Positions 2,480 to 55,054 of a stretch of DNA of 64,000 bases are shown here, piece after piece. Position 1 is the stretch's first letter. Each line of letters opens with the position of its first letter. The translations under genes and the position numbers were made by a program. Origin of the DNA: a virus (lineage: Duplodnaviria; Caudoviricetes); IMG/VR virus record IMGVR_UViG_3300017716_001697, positions 160,001 to 224,000 of that record. One strand, 5' to 3'. A model generated the notes under the pieces. The model was not told the DNA's origin. It saw nothing but the letters and a program-made list of their open reading frames with translations, and did no database searches.

Positions 2480-3211
2480 ATGTTATTAGACGCACTAAAA
2501 GATATTGTAAAACATACTCACACATTGGGTATTATTGAGATGGTTAAGGTAGTAGGATCTACAGCTGACCTAAAGATCGAAACCAAAGATGCAGATAATA
2601 CTGTTATTATCTACGGCAGCATGTATCAGCCAGTTGCAGGGCTCGAGTCCACTACAGGTTTTTCGCAATTAGCAGTGCTTAAAGGATTCATCGGTATGCA
2701 TGATGGTTCTGATGTAAGCCTTGAATCAGAGACACGCAATAATACGAGCACACTATCGTCTATCAAGTTCGACGATAAGGCAGAATTTATTTCGTCTTAT
2801 CGTCTTATGTCAGAGACAATGATTAACGAACAGGTTAAGGTGCCACCATTTAAGGGTGCAACATGGGACGTCACACTTACGCCAACAAAGGCAGCAGTTA
2901 CTCGTCTAAGCGAATGTTCGGGTATCATTGGTGGATTCGAAAAACGATTCACTGTGAGTGTAGACAAAGGTACATTGAAGTTTAGCGTAGGTACCGGCCC
3001 GACCAATACCACTGTGGTGCCGTTCGCAACAAACATTACAGGTACGTTAAAACATCAGTGGACATATCCATTGGCACAAGTGCTTAGTATCTTAAAGTTA
3101 ACTGAGACATCAACTGCTACAATGAGCTTTTCTGATATGGGCGCATTGAAGATTGATATCGACAGTGGTATCGGTAAGTACAGCTACATCTTACCAGCAG
3201 GCAAGTCCTAA
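2480..3211 (+). CDS. Putative sliding clamp / polymerase processivity factor (gp45-like)
   Basis: 243 aa, beta-rich, directly downstream of the polymerase, ends Y-I-L-P like phage clamps; strong AAGGA RBS. Function inferred from size and context. Confidence 0.6.
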   Translation: MLLDALKDIVKHTHTLGIIEMVKVVGSTADLKIETKDADNTVIIYGSMYQPVAGLESTTGFSQLAVLKGFIGMHDGSDVSLESETRNNTSTLSSIKFDDKAEFISSYRLMSETMINEQVKVPPFKGATWDVTLTPTKAAVTRLSECSGIIGGFEKRFTVSVDKGTLKFSVGTGPTNTTVVPFATNITGTLKHQWTYPLAQVLSILKLTETSTATMSFSDMGALKIDIDSGIGKYSYILPAGKS

Positions 3212-3490: not shown

Positions 3491-5086
3491 ATGACAAACA
3501 ACAGAACAAACTTTACGGAACGACACCTACACGGCGGTTGGGCAAAGTATCTTCCAGCAATTAGTGGATTTTACACAACACATTTAGGTAAGGATTTAGC
3601 CGATCCTGAATTCATCCCTGATTCTCGCGTACCTAAGGGATTTGAATTCGGTATGCAAGGACTGAACTTCTTTAAAGAAGACAATAATTATTTTAATTAC
3701 AAATTTGGTCTATTTTCAGCAGGTCATGCAGAAAGAAATCTTGCTAAGTGTAATGCCCGCGAACCGATGATTCACGATCGCGATCGTGAGAAGACGATCT
3801 TAATTGGTGACTCGGGTGGATTTCAAATTGCTACAGGTGTCATTAAAGTTGACTGGGCTACAGTGCAAACCCCGGCAGGTGATAAGTTGCGTGAAGAAAT
3901 TCTACGATATCTAGAGCATACATCGGATTGGTCGATGACATTAGACGTGCCGGCGTTCGCGGCAGAGCCACCGCTTAGTGCAAAAACTGGGTTAACAAAA
4001 TTCTCTGATTGTTTAGATGTTACTATGTATAATCTAGTATACTTCATGGAGAATCGTATCCCAGGTAAGACAAAGTTTTTGAATGTATTATCGGGTTCCG
4101 ACGCCGATAATTCCAAAGAGTGGTATGACTCGGTAAAAGTGTTTAGTCAACCACACATGGTCGAAGCGATGGGTTACACAAAAGACCGTACATTCGAAGG
4201 CTGGGCATTCGCTGGTATCAACATGAAACATATGCCGTCAGTGCTTAATCGTCTCTTAAACTTGCGCGATGACGGGCTATTAGCAGACAAAGATTGGATT
4301 CACTTCCTGGGCATTGGTCGACTAGATTGGGCATGTTATTTGACTTCTATTGAACGTGTATTAAGGAAACATTACAATCCCGATATCAATATTAGCTTCG
4401 ATGCAGCATCTCCCTTCGTTGCCGCTGGCGGCTATGCGTTATCGTATAACTATAACAAATTCAGCCCAGGCCAATTAACATATGCAATGGGCCGCGGAAT
4501 CGATGATAAGGGCGAGAAGGGTTCTACAGCAGCTATGCCGTTTCAGAGCCCCATTTATGATCGATTAACAGTTGGCGATATGTGTGTAATGGGGCCTAAT
4601 GATGCAAATAAACACGGCAAGATAGGAAACACAAGTTGGGATACAACGTCGTATGCATTGGTAATGGCACACAATGTTTACAATCATATTCAAGCTATAC
4701 AAGAAGTTAATAGACTTGCTGACGTCGAGTATGCCACAACTGCTAACCAAGATTTTAGACAATGGTTTGCACATCGTGGCAAGAAGATGAAGGCGCAGGA
4801 TACCAACAAAAGTGACTTTATCCCTAACGAAATAATCTTTATGAATAATTTCATTGAAGAACTGTTTGATCCTTCCACAAAAGATCCATACGGTATGATT
4901 GTTACTTATGCTGAATTATTAGAAAAGGTCAGTTTCACTAAGTTGGTAACTAAAAATAAATTAGACAGTAAACTATTTGAACTTGATGTATTTAACGGAA
5001 ATATCAATATACCCGATATTGACCAATTAGCAGTTTCAGATGATACACACTTAGTTGATAAATTAGCAGAAGACGATGAAACATGA
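3491..5086 (+). CDS. tRNA-guanine transglycosylase-fold protein, probably DNA-directed (DpdA-like)
   Basis: TGT motifs GDSGGFQ, MTLD, IHFLGIG, SFDAASP, HNV; Zn-binding Cys cluster not evident; queD and queE nearby. Confidence 0.8.
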   Translation: MTNNRTNFTERHLHGGWAKYLPAISGFYTTHLGKDLADPEFIPDSRVPKGFEFGMQGLNFFKEDNNYFNYKFGLFSAGHAERNLAKCNAREPMIHDRDREKTILIGDSGGFQIATGVIKVDWATVQTPAGDKLREEILRYLEHTSDWSMTLDVPAFAAEPPLSAKTGLTKFSDCLDVTMYNLVYFMENRIPGKTKFLNVLSGSDADNSKEWYDSVKVFSQPHMVEAMGYTKDRTFEGWAFAGINMKHMPSVLNRLLNLRDDGLLADKDWIHFLGIGRLDWACYLTSIERVLRKHYNPDINISFDAASPFVAAGGYALSYNYNKFSPGQLTYAMGRGIDDKGEKGSTAAMPFQSPIYDRLTVGDMCVMGPNDANKHGKIGNTSWDTTSYALVMAHNVYNHIQAIQEVNRLADVEYATTANQDFRQWFAHRGKKMKAQDTNKSDFIPNEIIFMNNFIEELFDPSTKDPYGMIVTYAELLEKVSFTKLVTKNKLDSKLFELDVFNGNINIPDIDQLAVSDDTHLVDKLAEDDET

Positions 5087-5291
5087 TTTACAATCCAGGA
5101 TAGACTCTGTTGAGAATATGATGCGTATTCAACAGAGTTGCTTGGAGCGTGGATATATGCACGGCATGATGAATGGGCTTATATGTGCCCATGCTGCATT
5201 TACTAATACAGATCCGGAGTTTGTTAAAATGCCGCACCGGAAGGTACAGATAAGGCACAAAGCAAGGAAATTACCTTCACGTAATGATTAA
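5076..5291 (+). CDS. Hypothetical protein
   Basis: 71 aa ORF overlapping upstream stop. Confidence 0.55.
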   Translation: MKHDLQSRIDSVENMMRIQQSCLERGYMHGMMNGLICAHAAFTNTDPEFVKMPHRKVQIRHKARKLPSRND

Positions 5292-5342
5292 ATTCTTATT
5301 AGGTGTCTTGTTTTCCACATTAATATAAGCTATAGTCACTAA

Positions 5343-5783
5343 ATGACAAAATACGCAACAAACACTAAGGAACCATCGGAGATGTTTCTTAATTCTATAA
5401 CATCGGGCGGTGGCTCACATTACATGGTCTGCGGCAACTGTGGCCGGACACATTATTGCCCTGATTCGGTTGCTGTAGGAGACGACGGATCTGATACCGA
5501 TGAAGACGATGTATACAAAAATTATCTTCAAGAGGCCCTACTTGACCAAAAGAACGACCCCGACGGTGTAGTGATACATCACGGGGTTGATTTCGTTGCT
5601 ACAAAAGATCTCCGTGGCATAGCTTTTGTATTAGAGTGTCCGTGTAATGGGCTAACAAAATACGAAGAGTTTATTTGGGACAACAAGGATCCTATTCGTC
5701 GATATTTGAAGGCACGGATTGATCAGGAACATGCATGGGCATTAGAACAGTTAACATTAAACAAACTAGCAGGAATAAAATGA
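5343..5783 (+). CDS. Hypothetical protein with CxxC motif
   Basis: 146 aa; CGNCGRTHYC and ECPC motifs. Confidence 0.65.
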   Translation: MTKYATNTKEPSEMFLNSITSGGGSHYMVCGNCGRTHYCPDSVAVGDDGSDTDEDDVYKNYLQEALLDQKNDPDGVVIHHGVDFVATKDLRGIAFVLECPCNGLTKYEEFIWDNKDPIRRYLKARIDQEHAWALEQLTLNKLAGIK

Positions 5784-6169
5784 CTAAACAAAAAGTATGG
5801 CCAACACCCGAAACAGCAGCACGTAAGTTTACGGATGAACAATTGAAAGATATGGTGGAAAGCATGACTACACCGAAGAAACATTTATTCATTGTGGATA
5901 CAATTTCCACATTCCGTCTGCGTTATGTTATCGAGGCAGAGAGTCTGGAACATGCATATGACGAAGTTACAATGGTCGACTCTGGTTGCCCTGAAGATGC
6001 ATTTGATGAAGTGACTCAGTTGCACGTAGGCGAGCAAATTATTGATGGTAGAAAAATTTCTAAGAAGAAGTTCGATAAGATGCTTGTAGAATTAGCAGCC
6101 GATGAACGAGAAAGTTGCTCGCACTGGATGGGCGATAAATTAATCCGCAAAATCGACTATACCCGTTAA
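5780..6169 (+). CDS. Hypothetical protein
   Basis: ATG at 5780 after AGGA RBS, ATGA overlap. Confidence 0.65.
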   Translation: MTKQKVWPTPETAARKFTDEQLKDMVESMTTPKKHLFIVDTISTFRLRYVIEAESLEHAYDEVTMVDSGCPEDAFDEVTQLHVGEQIIDGRKISKKKFDKMLVELAADERESCSHWMGDKLIRKIDYTR

Positions 6170-6170
6170 T

Positions 6171-6554
6171 ATGCAATTTGAAGATTTAAACCTTAAAGAA
6201 CGTCAGGCGTATGTAAAACACCGTACGCAGGCTAATATGCACATGCTACAGAGCAAGAAGGCTAAGAGCTCGCGTAGCAAATTTCACCTTAACATGGCAC
6301 AATTTCACAAGAACGCAATGTGTGAATTGTTACAACTGTTTGAAGCTGATCAAATAATTGCAAAATTACAAAGCGTAGGTGATAAGCCGAAACCAGATCC
6401 TGATTCATGGTGGTCTGCCCCAGCCGGCTTCACTGTTTTAAAACAACAGGTAATAGCACACTCCCGGACGTTGCGTGCGCAGTGGTTTTTAGAACCGACA
6501 TTAGATATAGAAATAATAGGCACATATGGGACTATAGTATGGCCAAAGAAATAA
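6171..6554 (+). CDS. Hypothetical protein
   Basis: 127 aa ORF in tightly packed operon. Confidence 0.6.
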   Translation: MQFEDLNLKERQAYVKHRTQANMHMLQSKKAKSSRSKFHLNMAQFHKNAMCELLQLFEADQIIAKLQSVGDKPKPDPDSWWSAPAGFTVLKQQVIAHSRTLRAQWFLEPTLDIEIIGTYGTIVWPKK

Positions 6555-6790
6555 TATCTCACAAAGATAAATTAGGGCAACCTATTGAAGAAGGAATGCA
6601 CGTTGTAGCATGCCATAGAAATTCTATCTACATATGCAAGGTAACAAAAGTACACCCTAAACAACTCCGAATACACAATGTATCGAAGAAAGGCTATGGC
6701 AGTGACTCGGATGGATGGTTGGTTTACCCCTTCGAAACTGTTATACTTAGTGGTCCAGATGCACTGGCCTATATTCTAAAATATGCATAA
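6539..6790 (+). CDS. Hypothetical protein
   Basis: Likely start ATG 6539; SH3/KOW-like composition (GQPIEEGMHVVA). Confidence 0.55.
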   Translation: MAKEIISHKDKLGQPIEEGMHVVACHRNSIYICKVTKVHPKQLRIHNVSKKGYGSDSDGWLVYPFETVILSGPDALAYILKYA

Positions 6791-7043
6791 TTCTATAACA
6801 AGAAAACTAACAGCAACATGGACCATCGACGAGGTGGATGTGTTCCCTGTTAGACTAACACCGGCAGAAATCAGTGAATTGTCTGAAGAAGAACAGGCTG
6901 ATCTTATTATAGATAAGCTTACAAATCCGCCTGTGAAGAAAACACTTATGGAAGAAATTGCAGACAGGATTGCAGATCAGATGGCAGCAGATATAGATAA
7001 GGCTGTAATGGATGAACTTATGGGCAATTTAGATGACGTATGA
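6783..7043 (+). CDS. Small protein with major-capsid (gp23)-like peptide segments
   Basis: TRKLTATWT and IADQMAADIDKAV flank an EEQADLIIDKL motif shared with the next two ORFs. Confidence 0.55.
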   Translation: MHNSITRKLTATWTIDEVDVFPVRLTPAEISELSEEEQADLIIDKLTNPPVKKTLMEEIADRIADQMAADIDKAVMDELMGNLDDV

Positions 7044-7230
7044 AGAAGAAGCCGATGCGATAATCGATAAGTTAAGATATGCACCTATAAAGCCTATCCC
7101 ACCTTACTTGTCATTTTCGCATTTTTCGAACACACCACCGGTAAATCCTATTGCAGGTAATTTGTGGCTCGATACAGTGTCTTATGTGACTAAAATTTAT
7201 AATGGACGCACATGGGTAATATTGTCGTGA
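7033..7230 (+). CDS. Small protein, EEEADAIIDKL motif plus virion-fibre-like motif
   Basis: PPVNPIAGNLWLDT...KIYNGRTWV resembles tail-fibre/baseplate repeats. Confidence 0.5.
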   Translation: MTYEEEADAIIDKLRYAPIKPIPPYLSFSHFSNTPPVNPIAGNLWLDTVSYVTKIYNGRTWVILS

Positions 7231-7571
7231 ACACGGTATTAACAGAAGAACAAGAGGCTGACGAAATTGTAAGAAGATTACAAACAGCTGGCAGAATAGA
7301 TAACAATGTCCTTACCGCGGAAATTTATATATACCCGGTAAAGCGCATAAGACAGGTACCGATTTATATCATGAGTGAAGCTGAAGCCGAAGCCGAAGCC
7401 GATAAGATAATTGAAAAATTAAAGGCCCCACCAAAAAAGACATTACGCACATTGGGTAGGGAATGGGGTTTTGAGATAACAGACACTATAGAATACTGCG
7501 TTGACTTCGATGCAGAAAAAGAATTAACAGCTATATTGCAAGAAGAAATTTTAAAGGGAATATTGGAATGA
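7212..7571 (+). CDS. Small protein with C-terminal gp23-like segment
   Basis: RTLGREWGFE...DAEKELTAILQEEI in register with T4 gp23 RQLKAAYSIE...DADAELSGILATEI (recalled). Confidence 0.6.
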   Translation: MGNIVVNTVLTEEQEADEIVRRLQTAGRIDNNVLTAEIYIYPVKRIRQVPIYIMSEAEAEAEADKIIEKLKAPPKKTLRTLGREWGFEITDTIEYCVDFDAEKELTAILQEEILKGILE

Positions 7572-8746
7572 GAAAACTATTTTATATGGGTCTTGAAAGT
7601 TATGAAGCAAGATACACCTTGCAATTACAAGATTGGAATGAACGTGTATTCAAGCGTCGTGGCATTGAATATGAACTTGTAACAGGTTCAGAATTAACAA
7701 CAGACAAGAAGATTGTGACAGGTAGCGTGCTCGATGCACATGGCCGTACTTATTACAGTATGATGCAGATGGCCAATCTAATTAAACTGATGAAAGAAGG
7801 CAAGGTTACATGTAACGATATTATCTTCTTTGAAGACATGTTTACACCCGGCATCGAATCGCTGCCTTACATTATGGATCAGATTCCTGTAGAATTTAGA
7901 CCACATGTATATGTGCGTTGCCTAGCTCAGAGTATTGACCCAGACGACTTTGTTAATCGCGAAGGCATGCTGCGGTGGATGCGCCCGTTTGAAAAGATGA
8001 TCGACGCATTTGTTGCAGGTATACTTGTAGCAAGTGAAGAAATGGCAGCACACCTGCGTATTGCAGGTTTCAATGCACGGATATTTGTTACCGGACTACC
8101 ATTTGGCAAAGAAGAAGTAGCTGAGCGAATTCCCGATGTTAAACCAATTGCTGATCGCACTCGTAGAGTAGGTTTTGCAGCCCGCTGGGACGACGAAAAA
8201 CAACCCGATTTTTACATGGATTTAGCTGAACATATGTACACTGTTGATCCTAGTATAGAGTTTGCTATATTCTGCGGGCATCCGGAGTTAAAGAGTAACA
8301 ATCCACGTTATGTTGAGAGAGCAAATAGCCTCGTATCTTCTGGTAAGGCAAACTTCAAGATCTATACAGGTTTGAAGAAGAATGATTATTATGCATTGCT
8401 TGCTGATAGTACCGTTTTATTTAACTGTGCGCTGCAAGACTGGGTAAGTAATACAGTTAGCGAAGCTGACACCTTTGGTACACTTACTTTGTATCCTGCA
8501 TATAGAAGCTTTCCCGAAGTGTTTGCCAATAATGCAGCCAACATGTATATTCCGTGGAGCATCAACGATGCTGCATCTAGATTAGCATCGATGTTCGCAA
8601 GACCCACCGAATACACAACAGGTGCAGTTAGCGACTGGCAGAATGGTACAATCGACAGAACGCTAGATGTGTTTGAGGGTAAAGGTGCACAGTGGGCCCG
8701 CAACACAAACGATTACAGAAAATACGTAGCAACAGCAAAATACTAG
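7568..8746 (+). CDS. GT-B fold glycosyltransferase
   Basis: 392 aa; ARWDDEKQP, EYYALL-like YYALLADS, SNTVSEA, LYPAYRSFPEV typical of GT-B C-terminal nucleotide-sugar-binding lobe. Confidence 0.75.
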   Translation: MRKLFYMGLESYEARYTLQLQDWNERVFKRRGIEYELVTGSELTTDKKIVTGSVLDAHGRTYYSMMQMANLIKLMKEGKVTCNDIIFFEDMFTPGIESLPYIMDQIPVEFRPHVYVRCLAQSIDPDDFVNREGMLRWMRPFEKMIDAFVAGILVASEEMAAHLRIAGFNARIFVTGLPFGKEEVAERIPDVKPIADRTRRVGFAARWDDEKQPDFYMDLAEHMYTVDPSIEFAIFCGHPELKSNNPRYVERANSLVSSGKANFKIYTGLKKNDYYALLADSTVLFNCALQDWVSNTVSEADTFGTLTLYPAYRSFPEVFANNAANMYIPWSINDAASRLASMFARPTEYTTGAVSDWQNGTIDRTLDVFEGKGAQWARNTNDYRKYVATAKY

Positions 8747-8753
8747 GAGCAGC

Positions 8754-8912
8754 ATGAAACAACCAGATCCAAAATTACATCAACGAATTAGTTTCGTTAA
8801 GAGCGGTTTAAGAATTTTAGCAGGTGGCGCATTCATTATGAGCACACTGTGGTTAGGCGGAGTCTTAATCATTGTTGCTGAAATTTTAGGTATTGTAGAA
8901 GAATTAGTATAA
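8754..8912 (+). CDS. Small membrane protein (52 aa, below ORF-track cutoff)
   Basis: MKQPDPKLHQRISFVKSGLRILAGG...AEILGIVEELV; GGAG RBS; two hydrophobic segments. Confidence 0.65.
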   Translation: MKQPDPKLHQRISFVKSGLRILAGGAFIMSTLWLGGVLIIVAEILGIVEELV

Positions 8913-9045
8913 TGGAGAATACACCAAAACCGTTGCCACCACCAAGCAGGTATGTGTGCGATATGTGCGGTGTATTAGCATCCCCGGATAAGCACAGAAA
9001 TTGGTTCTGTAGATTTTTTAAATGGATAGATAGTAAAGGAAAAAT

Positions 9046-9852
9046 ATGAACAGAGACGGACATAACAACGTGGCATTTTTTATCGGCCCAGAAGTAGAGA
9101 AGACACCAGCATTCGCTAAACGGACATTGTTTGTTGTAGGTAGACAAGGCAGTGCAGACATTGAAAAACAAGCCCGCGATAATAAGACACCACACATCTT
9201 TATGGGTGCAAATCATTCATTTGACATTGACCCACGCCACCCTGACGACACAGTAAAAGTTTACTGGGACAAGACAATCACAGCATTGCTAGACAAGGGA
9301 TTCTGGGTAACACTAGATTATGAAGCACACCTGCACGAAATGATGCTTACGATGCTAAATCCGGGTATTTGGCAATCTCGCTTATTTGTACCACTGTTAA
9401 GTGTACGTATTCCTAAGATTGAATCTTCTAGCCCTAACTTAACAGTTAAGATTGATGATGTAGATTTTAAAGCGACTAACCCAGGTGTTTGGTGTATGCA
9501 CTTTAAGGAAGTAACTGATAGCAACAGGTTCACTGACTGGAATGAATACGAATCTGATTCAGTTCTTGCAGAAGCGACAGCAGCGGTTGCCACAGTGGCT
9601 AAGGCACCGGCTCCTGTGCCAGCTAAGCCAGTTATTGAGGCACCGGCTCCTGTGAGCACAGTAGCAGTAAATGATACAGAACTGGGACTAGATGTTGTGC
9701 CGACAACAGCATTGAAGCCAGATGTGGTAGAAACAGTTGTAGCAGATGCAATTAAGACTCCGGAAGATGCGGCAGACGCATACGCCGAAGGTGCAAAAGT
9801 TGACCCACTAGGTGCAGAAGCATCTAAGAAGCCAAAGGCTGGTAAGAAATGA
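9046..9852 (+). CDS. Hypothetical protein between glycosyltransferase and queD; globular N-terminus, Ala/Pro/Val-rich tail
   Basis: 268 aa; stop overlaps queD start; 17-nt direct repeat AGGCACCGGCTCCTGTG at 9602 and 9638. Confidence 0.75.
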   Translation: MNRDGHNNVAFFIGPEVEKTPAFAKRTLFVVGRQGSADIEKQARDNKTPHIFMGANHSFDIDPRHPDDTVKVYWDKTITALLDKGFWVTLDYEAHLHEMMLTMLNPGIWQSRLFVPLLSVRIPKIESSSPNLTVKIDDVDFKATNPGVWCMHFKEVTDSNRFTDWNEYESDSVLAEATAAVATVAKAPAPVPAKPVIEAPAPVSTVAVNDTELGLDVVPTTALKPDVVETVVADAIKTPEDAADAYAEGAKVDPLGAEASKKPKAGKK

Positions 9853-10247
9853 GCAATGTAAAGATGATATGGGTAACTTTCCAGAAAGAAGGTATCCATA
9901 AATATCCGGCCGCATTAACTGACCCAAATCTAAATAAGGGTACAGGCGGGCCTGATAGTTGGCTTGATGTTAGCTTTCTGGGCTATCCACATAGACACAT
10001 GTTTAAATTTAAAGTGTGGATAGCAGTTACGCACGATGATCGTGATATTGAATTTATTCAGTTTAAACGGTGGCTTGAGAATTTATATACACAGTCTATT
10101 CTTGAGTTAGATTATAAGAGCTGTGAAATGATGAGTAACGACTTGTATGATGCAATATCTAAAGAATATCCTAACAGGGAAATTTGGATTGAAGTATCCG
10201 AAGACGGAGAAAATGGTTCATACACAGAGTATAGCACCGGTATTTGA
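9849..10247 (+). CDS. queD: QueD-like 6-carboxytetrahydropterin synthase
   Basis: T-fold size (132 aa), HRH metal motif, DIEF, SCE; context with queE and TGT-like gene. Confidence 0.7.
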   Translation: MSNVKMIWVTFQKEGIHKYPAALTDPNLNKGTGGPDSWLDVSFLGYPHRHMFKFKVWIAVTHDDRDIEFIQFKRWLENLYTQSILELDYKSCEMMSNDLYDAISKEYPNREIWIEVSEDGENGSYTEYSTGI

Positions 10248-10428
10248 TCCTAGATACAAGGCCGTGGTATTTGTTCCACCCAGTGATACTCCGTATTATG
10301 AAAGAGTAGACTGGGTGAGCAATAATACGTCGACTCGCATGGTGGATGTTAAATTCGAAAATCACGGAATGTATATAGCATTTGAAGACGAAAACGATGC
10401 ACTAATTTTTAAGATAAAATTCCTATGA
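10213..10428 (+). CDS. FKLRW-family small protein
   Basis: Ends FEDENDALIFKIKFL; ATG 10213 after GGAG. Confidence 0.6.
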   Translation: MVHTQSIAPVFDPRYKAVVFVPPSDTPYYERVDWVSNNTSTRMVDVKFENHGMYIAFEDENDALIFKIKFL

Positions 10429-10673
10429 CACTAAGAACACTAAAGACATCATTCTGTAAAGAAACACAGGATTGGTCGGAGGCTTACCGCAATATGTGTG
10501 TTAGCGAAGTTATACCAGTGATGGATATAGAGGACAGGTTACGTGTTGTAGAAGAGCGACTACTTATAGTAAATCCACCGGCTGGCAAATTTACTATGTA
10601 TCCTGCATTAGCAGAAGCATATAAAGAGTACAAACTAATAGAAAAACTAACATTAGGAAATAATGAAACATAA
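10425..10673 (+). CDS. Hypothetical protein
   Basis: 82 aa, ATGA-coupled. Confidence 0.55.
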   Translation: MTLRTLKTSFCKETQDWSEAYRNMCVSEVIPVMDIEDRLRVVEERLLIVNPPAGKFTMYPALAEAYKEYKLIEKLTLGNNET

Positions 10674-11631
10674 TATTCTAATCACAGGTGGTAGTGGGTT
10701 CGTAGGATCACAGGTAGCATCGGCATTGACTGATGAAGGACACACAATTACCATTGTAGATCGTGTCGATAAGAAACCGGGTGTCCCCGGTAATATTATT
10801 GTACGTGATTATCAAGAATTCTTTGCGCATAACAGAATACAGTATGATACAGTCATTCATTTAGCAGCCGAGCACCTAGTAGAACAGAGTGTGTCTGAAC
10901 CTGCAAAATATTACGTAAATAACGTGGTAAAAATGAAGGAAATGCTTGATTCTATGGTAGCTACTGGCATCAAGAATATTATGTTCAGCTCTAGCGGTAA
11001 TGTGTATGGCCGCCAAGGTGCTGCAGGATTCCCACTAAAAGAAGACATGTATTACGATCCCGAAAATGCATATGCATCTACTAAAGTTGCAGGCGAAATG
11101 TTAATTAAAGACTATTCGCGTGCATATGGATTAAACTATGTAAACTTTAGATACTTCAATGCAGCAGGTGCAGATCCATTATGCAGGTTTGGATATACCC
11201 AGCGCCCTGCAACCCATGTTATTCCTATCTTGTGCAATAAGATAATGAATAAACAGCCATTTACAATCTTCGGTGACGATTATCACACATTCGATCATAC
11301 GTGTGTTCGTGATTACGTAAACGTCTTTGACTTAGCTCAAGCACATGTTCTTGCCATTGATTTTCTAAACCGTGGCGGCAAAAATGAAACATTTAATGTA
11401 GGAGCCGGCAGTGGCGGTGTAAGTGTAAAGCAATTGGTAGATTGTGCAGGATTTGTATTAGGTGTTACGCCTGTAGTAGAATATGCACCACGCCGCGCCG
11501 GCGATCCAGCGATACTAATAGCAGATATTTCAAAAGCAGAGAAATTGCTTGGATGGAAACCACGATACACAATTAGTGATTCTATTAGACATGCATGGGC
11601 CTGGGAACATAAATTTGGAGGCACACCGTGA
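10663..11631 (+). CDS. galE: NAD-dependent NDP-sugar epimerase (GalE-like)
   Basis: TGGSGFVG, HLAA, FSSS, YxxxK (YASTK), RYFNAAG, CVRDY, RRAGDP. Confidence 0.9.
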   Translation: MKHNILITGGSGFVGSQVASALTDEGHTITIVDRVDKKPGVPGNIIVRDYQEFFAHNRIQYDTVIHLAAEHLVEQSVSEPAKYYVNNVVKMKEMLDSMVATGIKNIMFSSSGNVYGRQGAAGFPLKEDMYYDPENAYASTKVAGEMLIKDYSRAYGLNYVNFRYFNAAGADPLCRFGYTQRPATHVIPILCNKIMNKQPFTIFGDDYHTFDHTCVRDYVNVFDLAQAHVLAIDFLNRGGKNETFNVGAGSGGVSVKQLVDCAGFVLGVTPVVEYAPRRAGDPAILIADISKAEKLLGWKPRYTISDSIRHAWAWEHKFGGTP

Positions 11632-12161
11632 GCATATTTAACGGAAAGTTAACGGCCGCAGCCAGTGCTCCGGTCTATACGACAACAGCCAACACTATGG
11701 CTACCACTTTATACGGTGCTGGTGGCGGCGGAAGCTACATTACAGGTGCTGGTGGCTCAGCGAGTAACTTTACAGGAAATATCGGTACTGTCGGGACCGC
11801 TGGCCAATATATGATCTCAAACGGTACTACCGCGGCGTGGGCCAATAGCAATTATAGAGTATCGCCACTAGTGATTCATGGCAAAGATAATAAGGAGATC
11901 GTCCGGCTAAACGATGACGGCACCGTCACGTGGGCTAATGATATTGATGTCGACGAGGCCGCATTTGCGCTGGGACAATCACTGACACTTAACGTAGAAA
12001 ATTCAGCAGGCTTAACATATGCTGTAAAACAGCGTATGCGTGATACAGTGTTTGAAGAAATGATTTCTATGGCGAAAGAAAAGGGTGGCCTTACAGCCGA
12101 CGACTTGACTTATCTACATCAGGCTGCTAAAATAATGGACAAGCTCAAGGGCAAAGAATGA
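11628..12161 (+). CDS. Hypothetical protein, Gly/Thr/Ala-rich N-terminus
   Basis: 177 aa, GTG start overlapping upstream stop. Confidence 0.6.
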   Translation: MSIFNGKLTAAASAPVYTTTANTMATTLYGAGGGGSYITGAGGSASNFTGNIGTVGTAGQYMISNGTTAAWANSNYRVSPLVIHGKDNKEIVRLNDDGTVTWANDIDVDEAAFALGQSLTLNVENSAGLTYAVKQRMRDTVFEEMISMAKEKGGLTADDLTYLHQAAKIMDKLKGKE

Positions 12162-12364
12162 TAGACAAATTAATATCTGTAAATAGTAGATGGATAGATA
12201 ATGATACCGAACGTGCTACCCGTTGCATTATCGTGCGAGAGATTATATCCGAAGATGGCGAGCTATGGATAAAGTATAGTTCTCATGCACAAGATACTAT
12301 CTACGGTAGTACATACGATGCATTTCTTAAAAGATTCAAACAGGCAGGCAACAATGAAATTTAA
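12158..12364 (+). CDS. Hypothetical protein
   Basis: 68 aa, ATGA-coupled. Confidence 0.5.
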   Translation: MIDKLISVNSRWIDNDTERATRCIIVREIISEDGELWIKYSSHAQDTIYGSTYDAFLKRFKQAGNNEI

Positions 12365-12387
12365 TCAAACACAGTTAGAGGCCAAAA

Positions 12388-12591
12388 ATGTTAAAAGATA
12401 GACGAGTCCTTATCGAGCAGGAAATTAAAAAAGCTCACAATCAGGCAGCTAATATGTATCTAGATATTGTTGTCAGTGGTACCGATGATGATGCACACAG
12501 TCCAGAATACCAAGCGTTAAAGGATAAAATCATAAGTTTGCAGGTTGACCTTGATGTAATCAATACGCTAATCTCCAAAGGTTACGAATGA
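12388..12591 (+). CDS. Hypothetical protein
   Basis: 67 aa, GAGG RBS. Confidence 0.55.
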   Translation: MLKDRRVLIEQEIKKAHNQAANMYLDIVVSGTDDDAHSPEYQALKDKIISLQVDLDVINTLISKGYE

Positions 12592-12845
12592 ACGAGGAAA
12601 CAATTAAAGATCTAGCCATGCAAGCTGGATTCACGGTAACCCGAAATATGCAAGGACCGGTTGATGTTATAGAAGGTCGTGCAGTAGAAGCACGATCAGA
12701 ATGGGTACAAAACATGACATTAGCCCGATTTGTACAATACAGGTCACGATTTACACACTTTACTTTCTATACAATGGCCGCCGGCGTAGATTATACTTTC
12801 GTCCGTTCTGCTATGTTTACCCCTTGCCAAACGGAGACACAATGA
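12588..12845 (+). CDS. Hypothetical protein, MNERI-family-like N-terminus
   Basis: Starts MNEETIKDLAMQAG. Confidence 0.5.
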   Translation: MNEETIKDLAMQAGFTVTRNMQGPVDVIEGRAVEARSEWVQNMTLARFVQYRSRFTHFTFYTMAAGVDYTFVRSAMFTPCQTETQ

Positions 12846-13003
12846 TTCTAACATACGAAGAATGGATTAAGAATCACACAATAACGGTGAACCAAGAATT
12901 GTGTGATGATATGAAAAGATTACTAGGTATTGATGCCATGGCTGAAGCCGAAAGAGCACTGCGTCACGAATACCAGCTATACTTGGAACAACAAAATGTT
13001 TAA
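12842..13003 (+). CDS. 53-aa protein with gp23-like segment
   Basis: ATG 12842 after GGAG; ELCDDMKRLLGIDAMAE resembles gp23 ELAQDLRAVHGMDADAE. Confidence 0.55.
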   Translation: MILTYEEWIKNHTITVNQELCDDMKRLLGIDAMAEAERALRHEYQLYLEQQNV

Positions 13004-13193
13004 ACCTGATCCAAAATTTGGCTGGCATATATATTGGATTGCCCCATTGTTAATAATCGGTGGCATAATCGGCAAGCCATTACACTATCTTGAAAAACGT
13101 AGGCAACGTAAGCATATGGAAAAGATTATGCAGGATCCGGAGATTGTTGAATTGGCTAGACTCGCAGGATTAGTTGAACGTAAACGAAAATAA
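12996..13193 (+). CDS. Small single-pass membrane protein
   Basis: Hydrophobic IYWIAPLLIIGGIIG; ATG 12996. Confidence 0.5.
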   Translation: MFKPDPKFGWHIYWIAPLLIIGGIIGKPLHYLEKRRQRKHMEKIMQDPEIVELARLAGLVERKRK

Positions 13194-13202
13194 TGCTATA
13201 AT
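13174..13202 (+). promoter_or_regulatory. sigma70-type promoter (extended -10)
   Basis: TTGAAC-N17-TATAAT with TG at extended -10. Confidence 0.65.
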
Positions 13203-13207
13203 ATAAT

Positions 13208-13423
13208 ATGAATGAACGAATTGAAGAACTCGCCAGACATGCATTTGTGGCAGGTCTAGATACAGACCCAATTCTGTATTACGAAATAGAAAAATTTGCC
13301 GAATTACTCATTAAAGAATGCGCTTTTCAAGCATGTAATGATTTCGGCAGCGGCGGACAGTTCTATGAGGGTGCTAAGTTTGCAGCAACCCAGATTAAAG
13401 AACACTTCGGAATTAAGGAATAA
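13208..13423 (+). CDS. MNERI/KFAEL/HFG family small protein
   Basis: MNERIEELA...EKFAELLIKEC...IKEHFGIKE. Confidence 0.75.
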   Translation: MNERIEELARHAFVAGLDTDPILYYEIEKFAELLIKECAFQACNDFGSGGQFYEGAKFAATQIKEHFGIKE

Positions 13424-13576
13424 CAATGAACAATATTAATCAGCCTTGGCGCCTGTTGCCAAATCATATTAAACAGTGGGTTAGAGATAATGGATATGTT
13501 ATCCACGAATCCAGCAGTGGCGCAACGTATTACCCAGAGTGGCGCTGTGAATATATAAAATCAGTGGAGAATTAAA

Positions 13577-14467
13577 TTGTTTGGAACTAACGAAATTATC
13601 GGTAAGAAGTATTTTAAAGACGCACCAAAGGACAGCTTGTTTGTTACAAGCATGTTCTTCACGCTCCAGGGCGAAGGCCCCTATGCCGGTATGCCTGCAT
13701 TGTTCATCCGCCTAGCAAAGTGTAATCTGACTTGTTCATTCTGTGACACCTTCTTTGATGACGGCGAGTGGATGACGTTTGACCAAATTGACAATAAAAT
13801 GTTCGACACCATCCGTGAGTATTGGGTCAATCAGGGCAAAGAGGTACCTGAATGGGCTATTCCTAGATTCGACCGGCCCCAACCTAGGTTCAGCTTTCCG
13901 AATATTGTGCTGGTGATGACGGGCGGCGAACCGTTGTTGCAAGAAAACATCACGTCATTCATGCATGACCAACTAAAGACCTTCAAGGCAGTCCAAGTTG
14001 AAAGCAACGGTATCCCTGACACAGAAGTGCCATATGGTGTTACTCTCGTCTGTAGCCCAAAGTGTCTGGAAAAAGATGGCAAGGCAGTAAAGTATCTGGC
14101 GCCATCTAAGACTATCCTTCAACGTGCGGACTGTCTGAAATTTGTGATGACCGCAGAAGAAGGCAATCCATACCACACCGTACCTGATTGGGCACTTGAT
14201 TGGAAGTTTAATACTGGTCGAGAAATCTATTGCTCTCCGATGAATGTGTACAATGACTTTCCACAACAGATTAAATTGTTACGTGCTGAAAAGGGCGTAA
14301 TCACAATGGCAGAGCGCAGCACAGTTGATGAGGTTATCTCGTGGTGGGAAAAGGATTTGCTTAACATGCCAAAGAATGAAGATAATCATAAGTACGTCGG
14401 TCAATATTGTATGCAACACGGTCTGCGCATGCAGATGCAAATGCACCTTTTTGCGAGTTTAGCATGA
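13577..14467 (+). CDS. queE: 7-carboxy-7-deazaguanine synthase (radical SAM)
   Basis: TLQGEG, FIRLAKCNLTCSFCDT (CxxxCxxC), TGGEP, VESNG, CSPK, QMH. Confidence 0.92.
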   Translation: MFGTNEIIGKKYFKDAPKDSLFVTSMFFTLQGEGPYAGMPALFIRLAKCNLTCSFCDTFFDDGEWMTFDQIDNKMFDTIREYWVNQGKEVPEWAIPRFDRPQPRFSFPNIVLVMTGGEPLLQENITSFMHDQLKTFKAVQVESNGIPDTEVPYGVTLVCSPKCLEKDGKAVKYLAPSKTILQRADCLKFVMTAEEGNPYHTVPDWALDWKFNTGREIYCSPMNVYNDFPQQIKLLRAEKGVITMAERSTVDEVISWWEKDLLNMPKNEDNHKYVGQYCMQHGLRMQMQMHLFASLA

Positions 14468-15665: not shown

Positions 15666-15877
15666 GCTATCCAGATGAATTTATACACCGAGTTTACAAA
15701 ACTCAGGCTCGAGTTTTATTTAGTATACCAAAACGTCTCGATGAGATTGTTAAATCAGAACCGGATTCTTACATAGACGTTATATACGAAAATCTGAGAC
15801 CAATAATTGTGATTGTCTTTCCTACACAAGAAGACTGTCTAGCTTTTACACTTAAAAATGGAAACAAATATGTTTAA
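15662..15877 (+). CDS. FKLRW-family-like small protein
   Basis: IVFPTQEDCLAFTLK. Confidence 0.6.
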   Translation: MSYPDEFIHRVYKTQARVLFSIPKRLDEIVKSEPDSYIDVIYENLRPIIVIVFPTQEDCLAFTLKNGNKYV

Positions 15878-16499
15878 AATGAAATATGGTTGGCTACCTG
15901 CACACTGGGGTCTTAAGGGCAAGACACGGGAAGTTGCTAAGGCTGAATATGAGTTAGCGGGATACGATCTTGAATATCGTCTTCTAGAAATTAAGAAAGA
16001 TGAACTTTCTGAAAATGATTATGCACAGAAGCAAATCGATCTTTCGTTTAAACATGGTAAGATTACCAAGGCTGAGCAGATGCGTATGCTTGTTGCCCGC
16101 ATTACCGACGAAGGACAGAAGGCATTAGCATCTTTAGAACTTGATTACAAAGAAGGTTTCATAACAGACACCGAATATCAGAAACAAGCTGCTACACTCA
16201 AAGGCGAGCCGTGGGTAACAGTAATTAGTATGGACTTCGGTGGTCGTCAATCTCTAGAAGGTAGTTTTGAATTAGACTGGAATGATTTCTTTGTTGCAAA
16301 CTTAATTAAGGATGGCTACCAGGGCCCAACACCAGACAACATTGTGAACCAGTGGTTCATGACTGTATGCAAGAATGTCGCGCTAGAGGAATTCGACGGC
16401 ACGGGCAATTTCAACGCTGACGCGGATGCCAATTTCGAAACTATGAAACGTTGGAACTCTACGGAATCCTTAGACGGTGTTAGAAAAGGTTATAAATAA
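15858..16499 (+). CDS. Hypothetical protein
   Basis: 213 aa ORF with good codon usage. Confidence 0.75.
   Translation: METNMFKMKYGWLPAHWGLKGKTREVAKAEYELAGYDLEYRLLEIKKDELSENDYAQKQIDLSFKHGKITKAEQMRMLVARITDEGQKALASLELDYKEGFITDTEYQKQAATLKGEPWVTVISMDFGGRQSLEGSFELDWNDFFVANLIKDGYQGPTPDNIVNQWFMTVCKNVALEEFDGTGNFNADADANFETMKRWNSTESLDGVRKGYK
16491..16498 (+). promoter_or_regulatory. T4-late-like promoter motif
   Basis: TATAAATA; also at 21217 and 44235 (+) and 43697 (-). Confidence 0.5.
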
Positions 16500-16771: not shown

Positions 16772-17818
16772 ATGACAAAACCACATACATTTATTCACAC
16801 TGACGGACAGAATTTATTTCATCGTCAAATTAATATGACTAATCCAGCGTTAGGATTAGACAGTGCTATCGGAATGGCACTTCATATGATTCTGTATAGC
16901 ATGAAAAAGGAGTGGAATAGATTCGGTGGAACCCACTGTGTATTCTATATGGAAGGGTATTCATGGCGTAAGCATGTGTATCCACCATACAAGGCAAATC
17001 GTGTCGTAGCTGCGCAATCACTTACAGAACAGGAACAGGAAAATAAAGAAATCCTGCAAGGTGCATTCGATGATCTGGTATCCTTTATTAACGAAGGTAC
17101 CAATATTACTGTTCTAAGGAATCCTAAGGCCGAAGCTGATGATATGATTGCAATTTTCATCGAAGCTCACCCCGATGATAATCATGTCCTGATTAGTTCA
17201 GACTCTGATTTCTATCAACTGTTGCGCTTTCCTAATCTTACAATCTATGATCCGGTGAAAGATATCAGAATTACTCGCGACGGAATCCATGACGATCACG
17301 GTAAACGTCTTGCGTTTGCTGTTGATTCCACAGCTAAGATTAAGGTAGGTAAACCAGATCCCAATTTCACTGTTGATCCGGATTGGTACAATTATGCACT
17401 ATTTCTAAAATGTGTGCGTGGTGATAAGACTGATAATATCTTTAGCGCATATCCTGGTGTTCGTGAAAAAGGTACTAAATCATCAGTGGGCATTCGTGAA
17501 TGCTACAACGACACAAACAAGGGCTATGCATGGAACAACTTCATGCGTCAGAAATGGGTAGACGAGAATTCAATTGAACAGGAAGTGAAAAATTGTTACG
17601 AACGTAACAAGCTTCTTATTGATCTTTCCCAAATTCCCACAGACGTGAAAGAAGAGTGTCTAACTGTCATTGCAGAAACAACTGATCGAAAAAATGTTCC
17701 GGCACTCACAATAGGTACTGGTTTTATGAAATTCTGCGGACGTTGGGCACTAAAGAAGATCGGCGACAATTCAGCAGATTTCATGCCAATGTTGAAATCA
17801 AAATACAGTAACGAATAA
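16772..17818 (+). CDS. rnh: T4-type RNase H / 5'-3' flap exonuclease
   Basis: TDG, WRKHVYPPYKANR, EADDMI, SSDSDFYQL, RGDKTDNI acidic motifs. Confidence 0.9.
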   Translation: MTKPHTFIHTDGQNLFHRQINMTNPALGLDSAIGMALHMILYSMKKEWNRFGGTHCVFYMEGYSWRKHVYPPYKANRVVAAQSLTEQEQENKEILQGAFDDLVSFINEGTNITVLRNPKAEADDMIAIFIEAHPDDNHVLISSDSDFYQLLRFPNLTIYDPVKDIRITRDGIHDDHGKRLAFAVDSTAKIKVGKPDPNFTVDPDWYNYALFLKCVRGDKTDNIFSAYPGVREKGTKSSVGIRECYNDTNKGYAWNNFMRQKWVDENSIEQEVKNCYERNKLLIDLSQIPTDVKEECLTVIAETTDRKNVPALTIGTGFMKFCGRWALKKIGDNSADFMPMLKSKYSNE

Positions 17819-38253: not shown

Positions 38254-39453
38254 ATGGCAGACAACAGTCCAGAAGCAGTACTAGAACAACTTACACGAGC
38301 ACGAATTTCGTTGTTGCTCCAACAACCATTTTGGGGCACATTGGCCACACGTCTTATTCTGCGTGACAAGACCGACGACGAATGGTGCAAGACCGCAGCA
38401 ACTGATGGTCGCTATTTTTACTACAATCGCGATTTCATTTCTAAGCTGAACAAGCAGGAATGTATTTTCTTGATGGCACACGAAGTTGAGCATTGCGTGT
38501 ATGATCACATGGATCGTCGTGGTAGCCGCAAGCCTAAATTGTGGAATGCAGCCGCAGACTATGTTATCAACTGGGAGTTGCACGAACATAACATCGGCAA
38601 ATTGCCAGACGCAAAGACATCCGGTGTGCAGGCATGTTTTGATCCAAAGTACAAAGGCATGTTTGCTGAAGAAGTGTACGAATTGTTGATGCAAGACCCG
38701 GACAAACAATATCCGGAATTTGATATTCACCTCGAACCAGGTGATGGCAAGGGCGAACCTATGTCGTCCGAAGAACAACGTGTACTCAGCGACGAAATTC
38801 GTAATGCTGTTATGCAAGCCGCTAAAGGCGCATCCGGTGGTAATGTACCGGCTGGTGTAAAGCGCATGTTGAAGGACTTAACTGATCCACAGATGGATTG
38901 GCGCGAAATCTTGAACATGAAATTGCAGTCCATGGTTAAGTCTGATTTTACATGGGAGCGTTGCTCGCGTAAAATGCAAGCAAGCGGTATCTATCTGCCA
39001 GCAACCAAGAATGATTTCAAGGTTAAAGCAGCAGTGGCAATCGATTGTTCCGGGTCAATGGGCGACGATATGTTGCGTGATTTGCTGTCTGAAACCAAAG
39101 GCATTATGCAACAGTTTATGGACTTTGAACTCGAAGTGTGGTGCTTTGATACAAAGGTGTATAGTTACGAAAAATATACACCAGACAACCTCGATGACAT
39201 TGACAGTTACGAAATCAAGGGTGGTGGCGGCACTGACTTTGTGTGTAACTTCGACTTCATGAAAGAGAAGGGTATCGAACCAGAACGCTTCATTATGATG
39301 ACAGACGGTTATCCATGTGGTAGCTGGGGTGATGAAAATTACTGCGATACGTTGTTCCTGATTCACGGTGATCCTGGTCGCAGGTTAGTAGCACCGTTTG
39401 GTATGACAGCATGGTACGAGCCAGATAGTCATTCTCCTGGTAAGAAAAAATAA
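38254..39453 (+). CDS. Putative metallopeptidase + VWA-like domain protein (MoxR partner)
   Basis: TAATDG, HEVEH (HExxH), LWNAAADYVIN; C-terminal IDCSGSM, GGGGTDF, MTDGY. Confidence 0.88.
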   Translation: MADNSPEAVLEQLTRARISLLLQQPFWGTLATRLILRDKTDDEWCKTAATDGRYFYYNRDFISKLNKQECIFLMAHEVEHCVYDHMDRRGSRKPKLWNAAADYVINWELHEHNIGKLPDAKTSGVQACFDPKYKGMFAEEVYELLMQDPDKQYPEFDIHLEPGDGKGEPMSSEEQRVLSDEIRNAVMQAAKGASGGNVPAGVKRMLKDLTDPQMDWREILNMKLQSMVKSDFTWERCSRKMQASGIYLPATKNDFKVKAAVAIDCSGSMGDDMLRDLLSETKGIMQQFMDFELEVWCFDTKVYSYEKYTPDNLDDIDSYEIKGGGGTDFVCNFDFMKEKGIEPERFIMMTDGYPCGSWGDENYCDTLFLIHGDPGRRLVAPFGMTAWYEPDSHSPGKKK

Positions 39454-51744: not shown

Positions 51745-51820
51745 TCTGGCGTTAGTACAATGGATAGTACAGGGGATTTCTACTCCCTAGATAGGGGTTC
51801 GATTCCTCTACGCCGGACCA
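51745..51820 (+). tRNA. tRNA-Arg(UCU)
   Basis: 76 nt; acceptor TCTGGCG/CGCCGGA, anticodon arm GGGGA-TT-TCT-AC-TCCCT, GGTTCGATTCC, encoded CCA. Confidence 0.93.
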
Positions 51821-51837
51821 CCTAATTGAGAATACAA

Positions 51838-52095
51838 ATGACTATTTTACAAGAAACCAAACGTGTTGATTTCGACCCCGCTATTACCGAGCATCGTCAT
51901 GCTGTGGTAGCGTTCATGAAGCGTACAGCGTGGATGGACTCGCCTTTGCGATTCAATTACGACCCTGACTACGGCAGCGTTGCCGACCAAGTTCGCATTA
52001 AGATGCTGGACTGGTACATCGAGCAAGACACAGGCTTCAAGCCAGCGCCACACAAGAATCTCCCGGTGTTCGAACGCAGGCACGAAGATGTTTAG
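51838..52095 (+). CDS. Hypothetical protein
   Basis: ATG 51838. Confidence 0.6.
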   Translation: MTILQETKRVDFDPAITEHRHAVVAFMKRTAWMDSPLRFNYDPDYGSVADQVRIKMLDWYIEQDTGFKPAPHKNLPVFERRHEDV

Positions 52096-52372
52096 TCCAC
52101 GTAACAAAATTGAAACTGTGACAATGATGGCATCCGAAGTTGAGACAGTGGACACACTGTACGAACTTTGCGATGCTGAATTCAACAGCAGAAGTGATGT
52201 GCATAACAGCTTCCAATCCGCACGTGGTGCAGCGAGCTGGGCACGATACTTCCTATTGCACGAAGTGCGTAAGGTAGCGGCTCGTGAAGATATCTTCTGT
52301 AGCTATCACATGGCATTTGTGGTTGCATCTAAGCTGTCAGAAGTCTGGTTTGAACAGAAAGAAACAGCGTGA
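52088..52372 (+). CDS. Hypothetical protein
   Basis: ATG 52088. Confidence 0.55.
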   Translation: MFSPRNKIETVTMMASEVETVDTLYELCDAEFNSRSDVHNSFQSARGAASWARYFLLHEVRKVAAREDIFCSYHMAFVVASKLSEVWFEQKETA

Positions 52373-52566
52373 CATACGAAAGCAGAAAAGAGCAAGCAGA
52401 ACAAATTCTTGCGCTAACTCTGCTGGATATATCAGTACTCCGGCATGCCGCAGCACGCCAACAATCCATTACACACGAAAAGCATATTGATCATCATTAT
52501 CGCGACGCAATTGATGTGTTAGAAAAGAAAGCTGTGAGCGACAGAGCATATCTTGCTAGGTTTTAG
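52369..52566 (+). CDS. Hypothetical protein
   Basis: 65 aa, GTG start. Confidence 0.5.
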   Translation: MTYESRKEQAEQILALTLLDISVLRHAAARQQSITHEKHIDHHYRDAIDVLEKKAVSDRAYLARF

Positions 52567-53940: not shown

Positions 53941-53942
53941 TC

Positions 53943-54995: not shown

Positions 54996-55006
54996 TTGGT
55001 AATCAG

Positions 55007-55035: not shown

Positions 55036-55054
55036 TTGTTAACAGGAGAAATTT

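Follow-up and report, generated by a model that had tools for sequence, protein, structure and literature searches.

The closest described counterpart of the system considered here is the DpdL/DpdA3 system of Cellulophaga phage phiST, whose DNA was found experimentally to contain only 2'-deoxy-7-deazaguanosine (dDG) in place of dG, the replacement of guanine being complete (PMC10516641). In this type of system, DpdL, a QueD paralogue in which the CxxxHGH motif of QueD is replaced by the signature LxxxHRHxF, is proposed to decarboxylate 7-carboxy-7-deazaguanine (CDG) to 7-deazaguanine (Cui, Hutinet et al., NAR 2023, PMC10516641). Here, we analyzed a stretch of 64,000 nucleotides (hereafter the window), which corresponds to bases 160001-224000 of IMG/VR record IMGVR_UViG_3300017716_001697. 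This record is the genome of an uncultured phage, 364,576 bp long and bounded by direct terminal repeats, that probably originates from a freshwater metagenome. The window contains what appears to be a DpdL-type 7-deazaguanine DNA-modification system to which a glycosylation step has been added, and we give an even chance to the reading that it produces hexosylated 7-deazaguanine in DNA.

Like phiST, the window phage encodes FolE, QueD, QueE, a DpdL bearing the LxxxHRHxF signature and a divergent protein with the fold of tRNA-guanine transglycosylases (TGT), lacks a convincing QueC, and carries its modification genes in the replication region. The two systems nevertheless differ in several respects. 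phiST DpdA3 is 259 residues long and matches only marginally, in pairwise comparison, the 531-residue TGT-like protein of the window. The que genes of the window phage are distributed between two loci 46 kb apart, unlike those of phiST. Finally, phiST has no glycosyltransferase (GT), no UDP-glucose 4-epimerase (GalE) and no homologue of a conserved accessory protein, here called P3, whereas the window phage has all three. A megablast search with the region as query found no relative at the DNA level among 50,697 phage records. Among cultured phages, those closest in their proteins are the PA5oct group of Pseudomonas phages (Wroclawvirus), Phosso of Sinorhizobium and 2.275.O of Vibrio.

An earlier note, made from the letters of the window alone, had described six co-oriented open reading frames (ORFs) as a TGT-fold gene, a GT-B glycosyltransferase, a gene of unknown function, queD, a GalE-like epimerase and queE, and had proposed a sugar-decorated deazaguanine. 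All six ORFs were recovered where the note had placed them, on the + strand, with a span of 4.06 kb from the GT to galE. However, the queD assignment (9849-10247, + strand) was not borne out, as this ORF encodes DpdL, the proposed CDG decarboxylase. The protein carries the DpdL signature (LGYPHRHMF), matches PHROG 17812 (3.7e-31) and gave no match to the Pfam model of 6-pyruvoyltetrahydropterin synthases (PTPS). It shares 31-61% identity with the DpdLs of phiST (CGPG_00067; 31%), ACP17 (54%), PA5oct and Phosso, and in an alignment it joined 11 DpdLs, including that of phiST, apart from three true QueDs (CxxxHGY). Therefore, one would expect 7-deazaguanine as the base and not a derivative of CDG, and the suggestion of the note that the product could derive from CDG is not supported.

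In the pathway that we propose, FolE and QueD, encoded 46 kb upstream, would act with QueE to convert GTP into CDG, and DpdL would then remove the carboxyl group of CDG to yield 7-deazaguanine. The TGT-fold protein would exchange guanine in phage DNA for this deazapurine, to which the GT4-type GT would attach a hexose either before or after insertion, while the phage GalE would supply or balance UDP-galactose and UDP-glucose. The sugar-bearing 7-deazaguanine in virion DNA would block restriction and other DNA-sensing defences. The deazaguanine part of the pathway is complete, as FolE, QueD, QueE, DpdL and the TGT-like protein are all encoded in the genome.

The GT gene (7568-8746, + strand) encodes a predicted GT-B, GT4-like glycosyltransferase of retaining type, recognized by its fold and donor-site residues, and belongs to a DpdL-associated subfamily that we named LExxExRYT. 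An AlphaFold2 (AF2) model (pLDDT 76.8) displayed the two Rossmann domains of the GT-B fold with a Foldseek probability of 1.00. VIA-align of this model gave Z scores of 22.7 to 18 over 300-345 aligned residues with about 30 GT4 enzymes, among them sucrose-phosphate synthase (SPS, 22.7), PimA (22.3) and a pterin glucosyltransferase (5zer, 19.7), and 19.2 with the alpha-glucosyltransferase (AGT) of phage T4, which upholds the GT-B call of the note. In the GTs of the seven phage lineages described below, R206, E210, K211 and E299 do not vary and the D291-x7-E299 motif is retained; this last motif lines up with Ex7E of the ACP17 homologue. The N-terminal LExxExRYT motif is common to all seven. The window GT was not matched by Pfam Glycos_transf_1, and a precomputed PF00534 match exists for some of its homologues at 77-81% identity. 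Among the viral structures of BFVD, the best two matches were an unnamed protein of 370 residues and the ACP17 GT, with generic viral GTs well behind. The top 30 Swiss-Prot fold matches consisted of generic GT4 enzymes, and the tRNA queuosine glycosyltransferases were not among them.

The association of the GT with the deazaguanine genes was then evaluated in relatives. IMG/VR contains 574 stretches that encode relatives of the window GT, of which the best 80 (GT identity 58-83%) were analyzed. DpdL was present in 77 of these 80 loci, GalE in 78, P3 in 63, the TGT-like protein in 62 and FolE in 59. Most often, the gene right before the GT is that of DpdL; galE mostly starts 1.1-1.2 kb past the GT start, hence directly downstream. 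At least four gene orders were observed, and the absence of a gene mostly coincided with short flanks. In these loci, the GT is better conserved than the TGT-like protein (33-75% identity).

Furthermore, GTs of the same subfamily adjoin a DpdL or DpdA-like gene in seven lineages, namely the clade of the window phage, BUCT-ZZ01, Phosso, BUDD, PA5oct, BCSR5 and ACP17. The GT of BUCT-ZZ01 shares 58% identity with that of the window and those of the other five cultured lineages 20-25%. Acidovorax phage ACP17 and the PA5oct group have in common with the window phage a module composed of P3-like, DpdA-like, GT, DpdL and QueE genes; their GTs are just 21-22% identical to the window GT, and neither has a full GalE. 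In ACP17, this module is contiguous with QueD and FolE (QueD, FolE, P3-like, DpdA-like, GT, DpdL, QueE). In the PA5oct group, the TGT-like protein, 47% identical to that of the window, is directly followed by the GT and DpdL, then by QueE 1.3 kb further on. In Phosso, DpdL and the GT have FolE and QueE after them inside a 5-kb span; in BUDD, the order is GT, DpdA-like, DpdL, QueE. The T4-like cyanophage BUCT-ZZ01 presents QueE, a phosphoribosyltransferase, QueD, FolE, a second weak GT (Glyco_trans_1_4; UTS52035, L008:7364-8707), DpdA-like, DpdL and the GT. No searchable publication ties the ACP17 or PA5oct GT to modification. The earlier note had considered that the GT and GalE might occur in relatives independently of the dpdA and que genes; we observed linkage instead, both across these seven lineages and in the 80 loci. 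The identities of the genes are established from fold, motif or family score, and this conserved linkage to DpdL and DpdA-like genes provides good support for a functional link of the GT and the epimerase with the deazaguanine pathway.

Conserved neighborhoods could also have another origin. Phage glycosyltransferases acting on targets other than DNA are common, and the GT and GalE could serve another base, a virion or host protein or the glycans of the host envelope, with plain 7-deazaguanine in the DNA and a location in the replication block explained merely by shared early expression and inheritance. Related phages with a conserved polymerase/TGT-like/GT neighborhood do make up many of the 80 loci. 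Also in keeping with this explanation, Xanthomonas phage PhiXhv-12 encodes a sister GT (L096:8740-9843, with relatives in Ep026 and Ep032) beside GlmS and a BshB-like deacetylase, and phages of this type, with genomes of 227 kb, have no DpdL. However, the PhiXhv-12 GT scored 101 bits against the family model, compared to 430-515 for members, and lacks the N-terminal ExRYT motif; therefore, it belongs to a sister family, which may take part with GlmS and the deacetylase in a different amino-sugar modification system. Moreover, shared inheritance accounts poorly for adjacency in seven deeply diverged lineages with varied gene orders and GT identities of mostly 20-25%, or in T4-like cyanophage-type loci devoid of the TGT-like family of the window. 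With regard to another base, no pyrimidine hydroxymethylase that could create an alternative acceptor was found in the genome. The sole thymidylate synthase homologue passes the ThyA equivalog model (242.6 bits vs 108.35) and keeps the Asn of the PFN motif that specifies dUMP, making an alternative acceptor in DNA unlikely, though on sequence grounds a small residual chance that it acts as a dUMP hydroxymethylase has to be allowed. Taken as a whole, the idea that the GT and GalE serve another target seems to us unlikely, though worth keeping in mind.

The distribution of the GT among DpdL systems bears on the step at which it would act. The GT family was absent from the records of five DpdL lineages (phiST and its relatives, RHph_I1_18, Bakedbeans, Ahp1 and D479) in searches run with a positive control. 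On a DpdL tree, GT-bearing and GT-less phages interleave, with four changes in the most parsimonious scenario and at least two forced by well-supported branches on a tree that is itself weak, being built on a protein of 130 residues. For instance, Ahp1, which has no GT, is sister to PA5oct, which has one. The active-site motifs of DpdL are alike in both sets. Because the two sets interleave, the GT looks like an optional add-on, and such a distribution is easier to reconcile with a decoration placed on top of a functioning dDG pathway than with a step that biosynthesis requires. In Vibrio phage Bakedbeans, about 268 residues without detectable relatives, and with no likeness to anything in the clusters, apparently precede DpdL in the same protein (gp176, L012:9182-10363); this fusion could be an annotation artefact.

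These observations also help to weigh the possibility that the acceptor of the GT is a small molecule of the pathway in free form, such as a pterin or a deazapurine intermediate, and that the sugar is not retained in DNA. For example, the GT might mask or activate the free base ahead of the transglycosylase or of a phosphoribosyltransferase, in which case the DNA would contain plain dDG or another non-glycosylated deazaguanine. Small-molecule GT4 enzymes, including the tetrahydrobiopterin glucosyltransferases 5zer (Z 19.7) and 9v0l, are indeed among the top structural matches of the GT, the pathway runs via pterins, and DpdL, a protein of PTPS fold, is mostly encoded immediately upstream of the GT. 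A phosphoribosyltransferase encoded after GalE in 34 loci, and present in BUCT-ZZ01 and PA5oct, likewise indicates that free-base or nucleotide chemistry takes place in many clusters. Nevertheless, phiST makes dDG without a GT, so the GT is no obligatory step of biosynthesis, and a dedicated GalE in 78 of the 80 loci suggests bulk use of sugar rather than a catalytic intermediate. There is also no known benefit to a phage from a free pterin glycoside. Accordingly, we hold a role of the GT on a free molecule to be improbable, if credible, and a sugar carried by the base in DNA to be the better explanation.

The phosphoribosyltransferase mentioned above is a purine enzyme (PF00156, nearest to the XPRT/HGPRT models) encoded directly 3' of GalE in the 34 related IMG/VR loci (representative, L024:12094-12627) and within the que clusters of PA5oct (L001:17922-18356) and BUCT-ZZ01 (L008:5447-5908). 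Its role could be to recover guanine after excision or to make a nucleotide of the deazapurine, and it is a frequent but dispensable member of the clusters. When tubercidin and toyocamycin are made, phosphoribosyltransferases convert CDG or 7-cyano-7-deazaguanine (preQ0) into deazapurine nucleotides. By analogy, the polymerase could incorporate the deazapurine as a dNTP, the TGT-like protein and the GT then acting on a nucleotide or precursor instead of DNA. The complete replacement of guanine in phiST and the MazG-like pyrophosphatase encoded in its cluster are consistent with such a route. However, no PF00156 phosphoribosyltransferase is encoded in the genome of the window phage, and where present, the enzyme could equally salvage guanine freed by base exchange. 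Furthermore, a TGT-fold enzyme is found in every deazaguanine phage examined, and insertion after replication has been argued (Cui et al., PMC10516641). We therefore regard incorporation at the nucleotide level as very unlikely.

Base exchange within DNA would be carried out by the divergent TGT-fold protein (3491-5086, + strand; 531 residues), a candidate DNA guanine transglycosylase of the DpdA-like type according to its fold, motifs and profile-profile comparison. The AF2 model, built from 29 homologues, reached a mean pLDDT of 82.5 and a pTM of 0.84, and the top 50 Foldseek matches in the PDB were all tRNA-guanine transglycosylases, with a probability of 1.00 and a TM score by target of about 0.5. 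These matches, together with the DSGGFQ motif at residues 107-112, bear out the TGT fold recognized in the earlier note. The motifs GDSGGFQ (106-112), HFLGIG (271-276) and SFDAAS (302-307) are invariant in the 29 homologues, and the Asp residues of the first and the last would be equivalent to catalytic residues of TGT, including the nucleophile. Alignment by hhalign with the DpdA-like proteins of BUDD, ACP17, BCSR5 and BUCT-ZZ01 yielded 89.5% probability and an E-value of 2e-6 over 190 columns, with DSGGxQ, HxLGxG and IS(F/Y)D in register on both sides. Pairwise BLASTP was marginal, with E-values of 0.005 to the ACP17 DpdA-like protein and 0.001 to phiST DpdA3. The TGT-like protein had no match in Pfam, NCBIfam or PHROG, and sequence and profile searches of the PDB returned no TGT.

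The remaining steps toward the base are split between two loci. Within the window, the QueE-like radical S-adenosylmethionine enzyme, a putative CDG synthase (13577-14467, + strand), carries the CxxxCxxC motif as CNLTCSFC, matches PHROG 2076 (3.2e-46) and is 41% identical to ACP17 QueE. Its four best NCBIfam models are all QueE, with scores (46-66 bits) far below the cut-offs of 200-300, and the queE assignment of the note thus stands as QueE-like. FolE and QueC are absent from the window, as the note had stated. Across the whole genome, FolE was found (112875-113603; 2.8e-64) about 46 kb upstream of the window, as was a true QueD (113905-114381; PTPS/QueD, 7.1e-15), in a block (111657-114381) composed of thymidylate synthase, a 107-residue ORF, FolE and QueD. 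In contrast, the search for QueC returned just a weak PP-loop ORF of 202 residues (38477-39085 of the genome; L003:1090-1698) that matches only the C-terminal, zinc-site quarter of QueC. It scored 30.9 bits with Pfam QueC, 6e-10 with PHROG 1550 (QueC-like) and 24.9 bits with TIGR00364, the cut-off of which is 150. If this ORF works as a QueC-like enzyme, the base could be a derivative of 7-amido-7-deazaguanine (ADG) or preQ0 instead of 7-deazaguanine. No preQ1 or queuosine genes were found in this phage.

Published observations made on two of the relatives fit an unrecognized extra step. PA5oct DNA resists restriction enzymes that have G in their sites, contains a modified G of unreported identity, and is hit by defences that sense modified G. 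Expression of ACP17 dpdL and dpdA alone in E. coli yielded no dDG, and further enzymes were suspected (Cui et al., PMC10516641); P3 and the GT are among the genes of the dpdA-dpdL region of ACP17. We put slightly less than an even chance on the virion DNA of the window phage and of PA5oct, ACP17, BUDD, BCSR5, BUCT-ZZ01 and Phosso containing hexosylated 7-deazaguanine.

Several points weigh against hexosylated 7-deazaguanine as the product. The first and main one is chemical. 7-deazaguanine has neither a hydroxyl nor a carboxyl group, and a sugar would need C7, C8, N2 or O6 as its point of attachment. Attachment to C7 or C8 would amount to a C-glycoside on an electron-rich pyrrole ring, and substitution of N2 or O6 would disturb base pairing. 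We know of no GT4 enzyme that glycosylates any of these positions in such a base. The second concerns the GT itself, the fold match of which is generic: MshA, BshA, SenB, PimA and two pterin glucosyltransferases equal or exceed T4 AGT in score, and matches between modeled folds do not separate a DNA acceptor from a small-molecule acceptor. Besides, seven GT homologues are all acidic (pI 5.4-6.2), with no hint of DNA binding. The third concerns the linkage, as most of the 80 loci come from related aquatic phages that share the synteny of the replication module, and their count therefore overstates their independence. Regarding the TGT-like protein, a zinc site is not discernible, and the Pfam TGT model PF01702 matches neither this protein nor any other part of the genome; PF01702 also misses the DpdA-like proteins of ACP17, BUDD and BUCT-ZZ01 as well as phiST DpdA3, and the BCSR5 DpdA-like protein remains below threshold (13.4 bits vs a cut-off of 26.3). 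Finally, the decarboxylase activity of DpdL itself is a prediction (PMC10516641), and the reactions are all inferred, as are the nature of the donor sugar, the atom that accepts it and its presence in DNA.

The epimerase that would serve the GT (10663-11631, + strand) is a UDP-glucose 4-epimerase. It passes the equivalog cut-off of TIGR01179 (292.9 bits vs 262.3) and matches Pfam Epimerase (7.8e-50), and all its PDB matches below 1e-30 are GalE (best, 6.4e-70), so that the GalE-like call of the note was upheld. A distant GalE copy from a related locus likewise passes TIGR01179. In PA5oct, a 172-residue Rossmann fragment and the phosphoribosyltransferase replace the full GalE. The fragment (EST35_0320, L001:17392-17910) weakly resembles GalE in its N-terminal, NAD-binding part (18.8 bits) and, located at the position of the full gene in relatives, may be a remnant. 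The idea that GalE is split in PA5oct, with EST35_0321 as its C-terminal half, was rejected because EST35_0321 has a phosphoribosyl pyrophosphate-binding motif.

P3 (9046-9852, + strand) consists of a 170-residue N-terminal domain and an Ala/Pro/Val-rich tail with a Lys-rich end. This low-complexity extension of about 95 residues (about 176-268), which terminates in KKPKAGKK, is absent from most relatives, which are about 170 residues long. Besides the 63 GT loci, homologues are encoded in PA5oct and, within the que cluster, in ACP17. P3 had no Pfam or PDB-profile match, and none of its 1234 homologues is named. Structural neighbors of P3 were discarded given the poor Atlas model (pLDDT 0.33), and a PHP_C lead from Atlas features (0.90) was not trusted as few features are shared.

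Directly after galE lies an ORF of 177 residues (11628-12161, + strand), the membership of which in the system is uncertain; it has just a weak match to PHROG 12721 and, among the GT loci, is confined to the closest relatives. We rejected it as the counterpart of the phosphoribosyltransferase of relatives; the genome is devoid of any PF00156 member. Some related clusters carry extra genes, including the second weak GT of BUCT-ZZ01, DegT-type ORFs resembling aminotransferases and a methyltransferase (28 loci each) and a HIT-domain protein (18 loci), with coordinates for the last three at L087:13496-14122, L060:3515-4552 and L088:16427-16855. The sugar or further decoration may therefore vary between lineages.

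The window has a G+C content of about 41%, and the + strand carries nearly all genes of its first 19 kb. The sequencing runs listed for it comprised the probable source sample, as freshwater metagenome contigs, and one run with a small share, with no RNA sample among them. The modification region is preceded by a family-B DNA polymerase (1-2406) and followed by a 5'-3' exonuclease (16772-17818), and is therefore part of the replication module. Homologues of virion structural proteins are found among the replication and modification genes, namely PHROG 12062 (2480-3211) and PHROG 13349 (15858-16499); the arrangement is alike in PA5oct, in which the PHROG 12062 homologue is annotated as a structural protein. 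Elsewhere in the window, an RtcB-type tRNA/RNA ligase (52606-53940; PHROG 1075, 7e-147) has tRNA-Arg(TCT) and tRNA-Met(CAT) on either side (51746-55395), which looks like a tRNA-repair module.

If our reading is correct, hexosylated 7-deazaguanine would be, as far as we could find, the first sugar-bearing purine in natural DNA. The known hypermodifications of DNA would gain a new class, and new glycosyltransferase chemistry would be required, with C- or N-glycosylation of a hydroxyl-less deazapurine by a GT4 subfamily. The modified G of therapeutic jumbo phages of the PA5oct type could then be this base, and the failure of ACP17 dpdL and dpdA alone to give a product in E. coli might be explained. 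The nature of the base also matters for the sequencing and cloning of such genomes and for the question of which defences of the restriction, glycosylase and END types detect them. Both key families are abundant in metagenomes, with nearly 8000 homologues of the GT and over 5000 of the TGT-like protein, and GT-bearing phages exist in culture.

Full-text searches, outside which most subscription journals lie, revealed no report of glycosylated, hexosyl or glucosyl deazaguanine in DNA, in agreement with the view of the earlier note that such a modification was not known to be described. To our knowledge, the known glycosylated DNA bases are all pyrimidines (glucosyl- and arabinosyl-hydroxymethylcytosine and base J), and the known phage 7-deazaguanines are all small C7 derivatives. 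In T4, the alpha- and beta-glucosyltransferases (AGT and BGT) transfer a hexose from UDP-hexose to a modified base of replicated DNA; like the window GT, they are phage enzymes of the GT-B type. However, the match to T4 AGT (Z 19.2) is no closer than those to dozens of GT4 enzymes, and the T4 acceptor is a hydroxymethyl group provided by a dCMP hydroxymethylase, no sign of which was found in the genome of the window phage. Glycosylated queuosine occurs in animal tRNA as mannosyl- and galactosyl-queuosine. There, the acceptor is the cyclopentenediol hydroxyl of queuosine and the nucleic acid is RNA, whereas genes for preQ1 and queuosine are lacking in the window phage. Yet animal tRNA follows the same concept as the one proposed here, in which a sugar is placed on a TGT-inserted 7-deazaguanine derivative in a nucleic acid.

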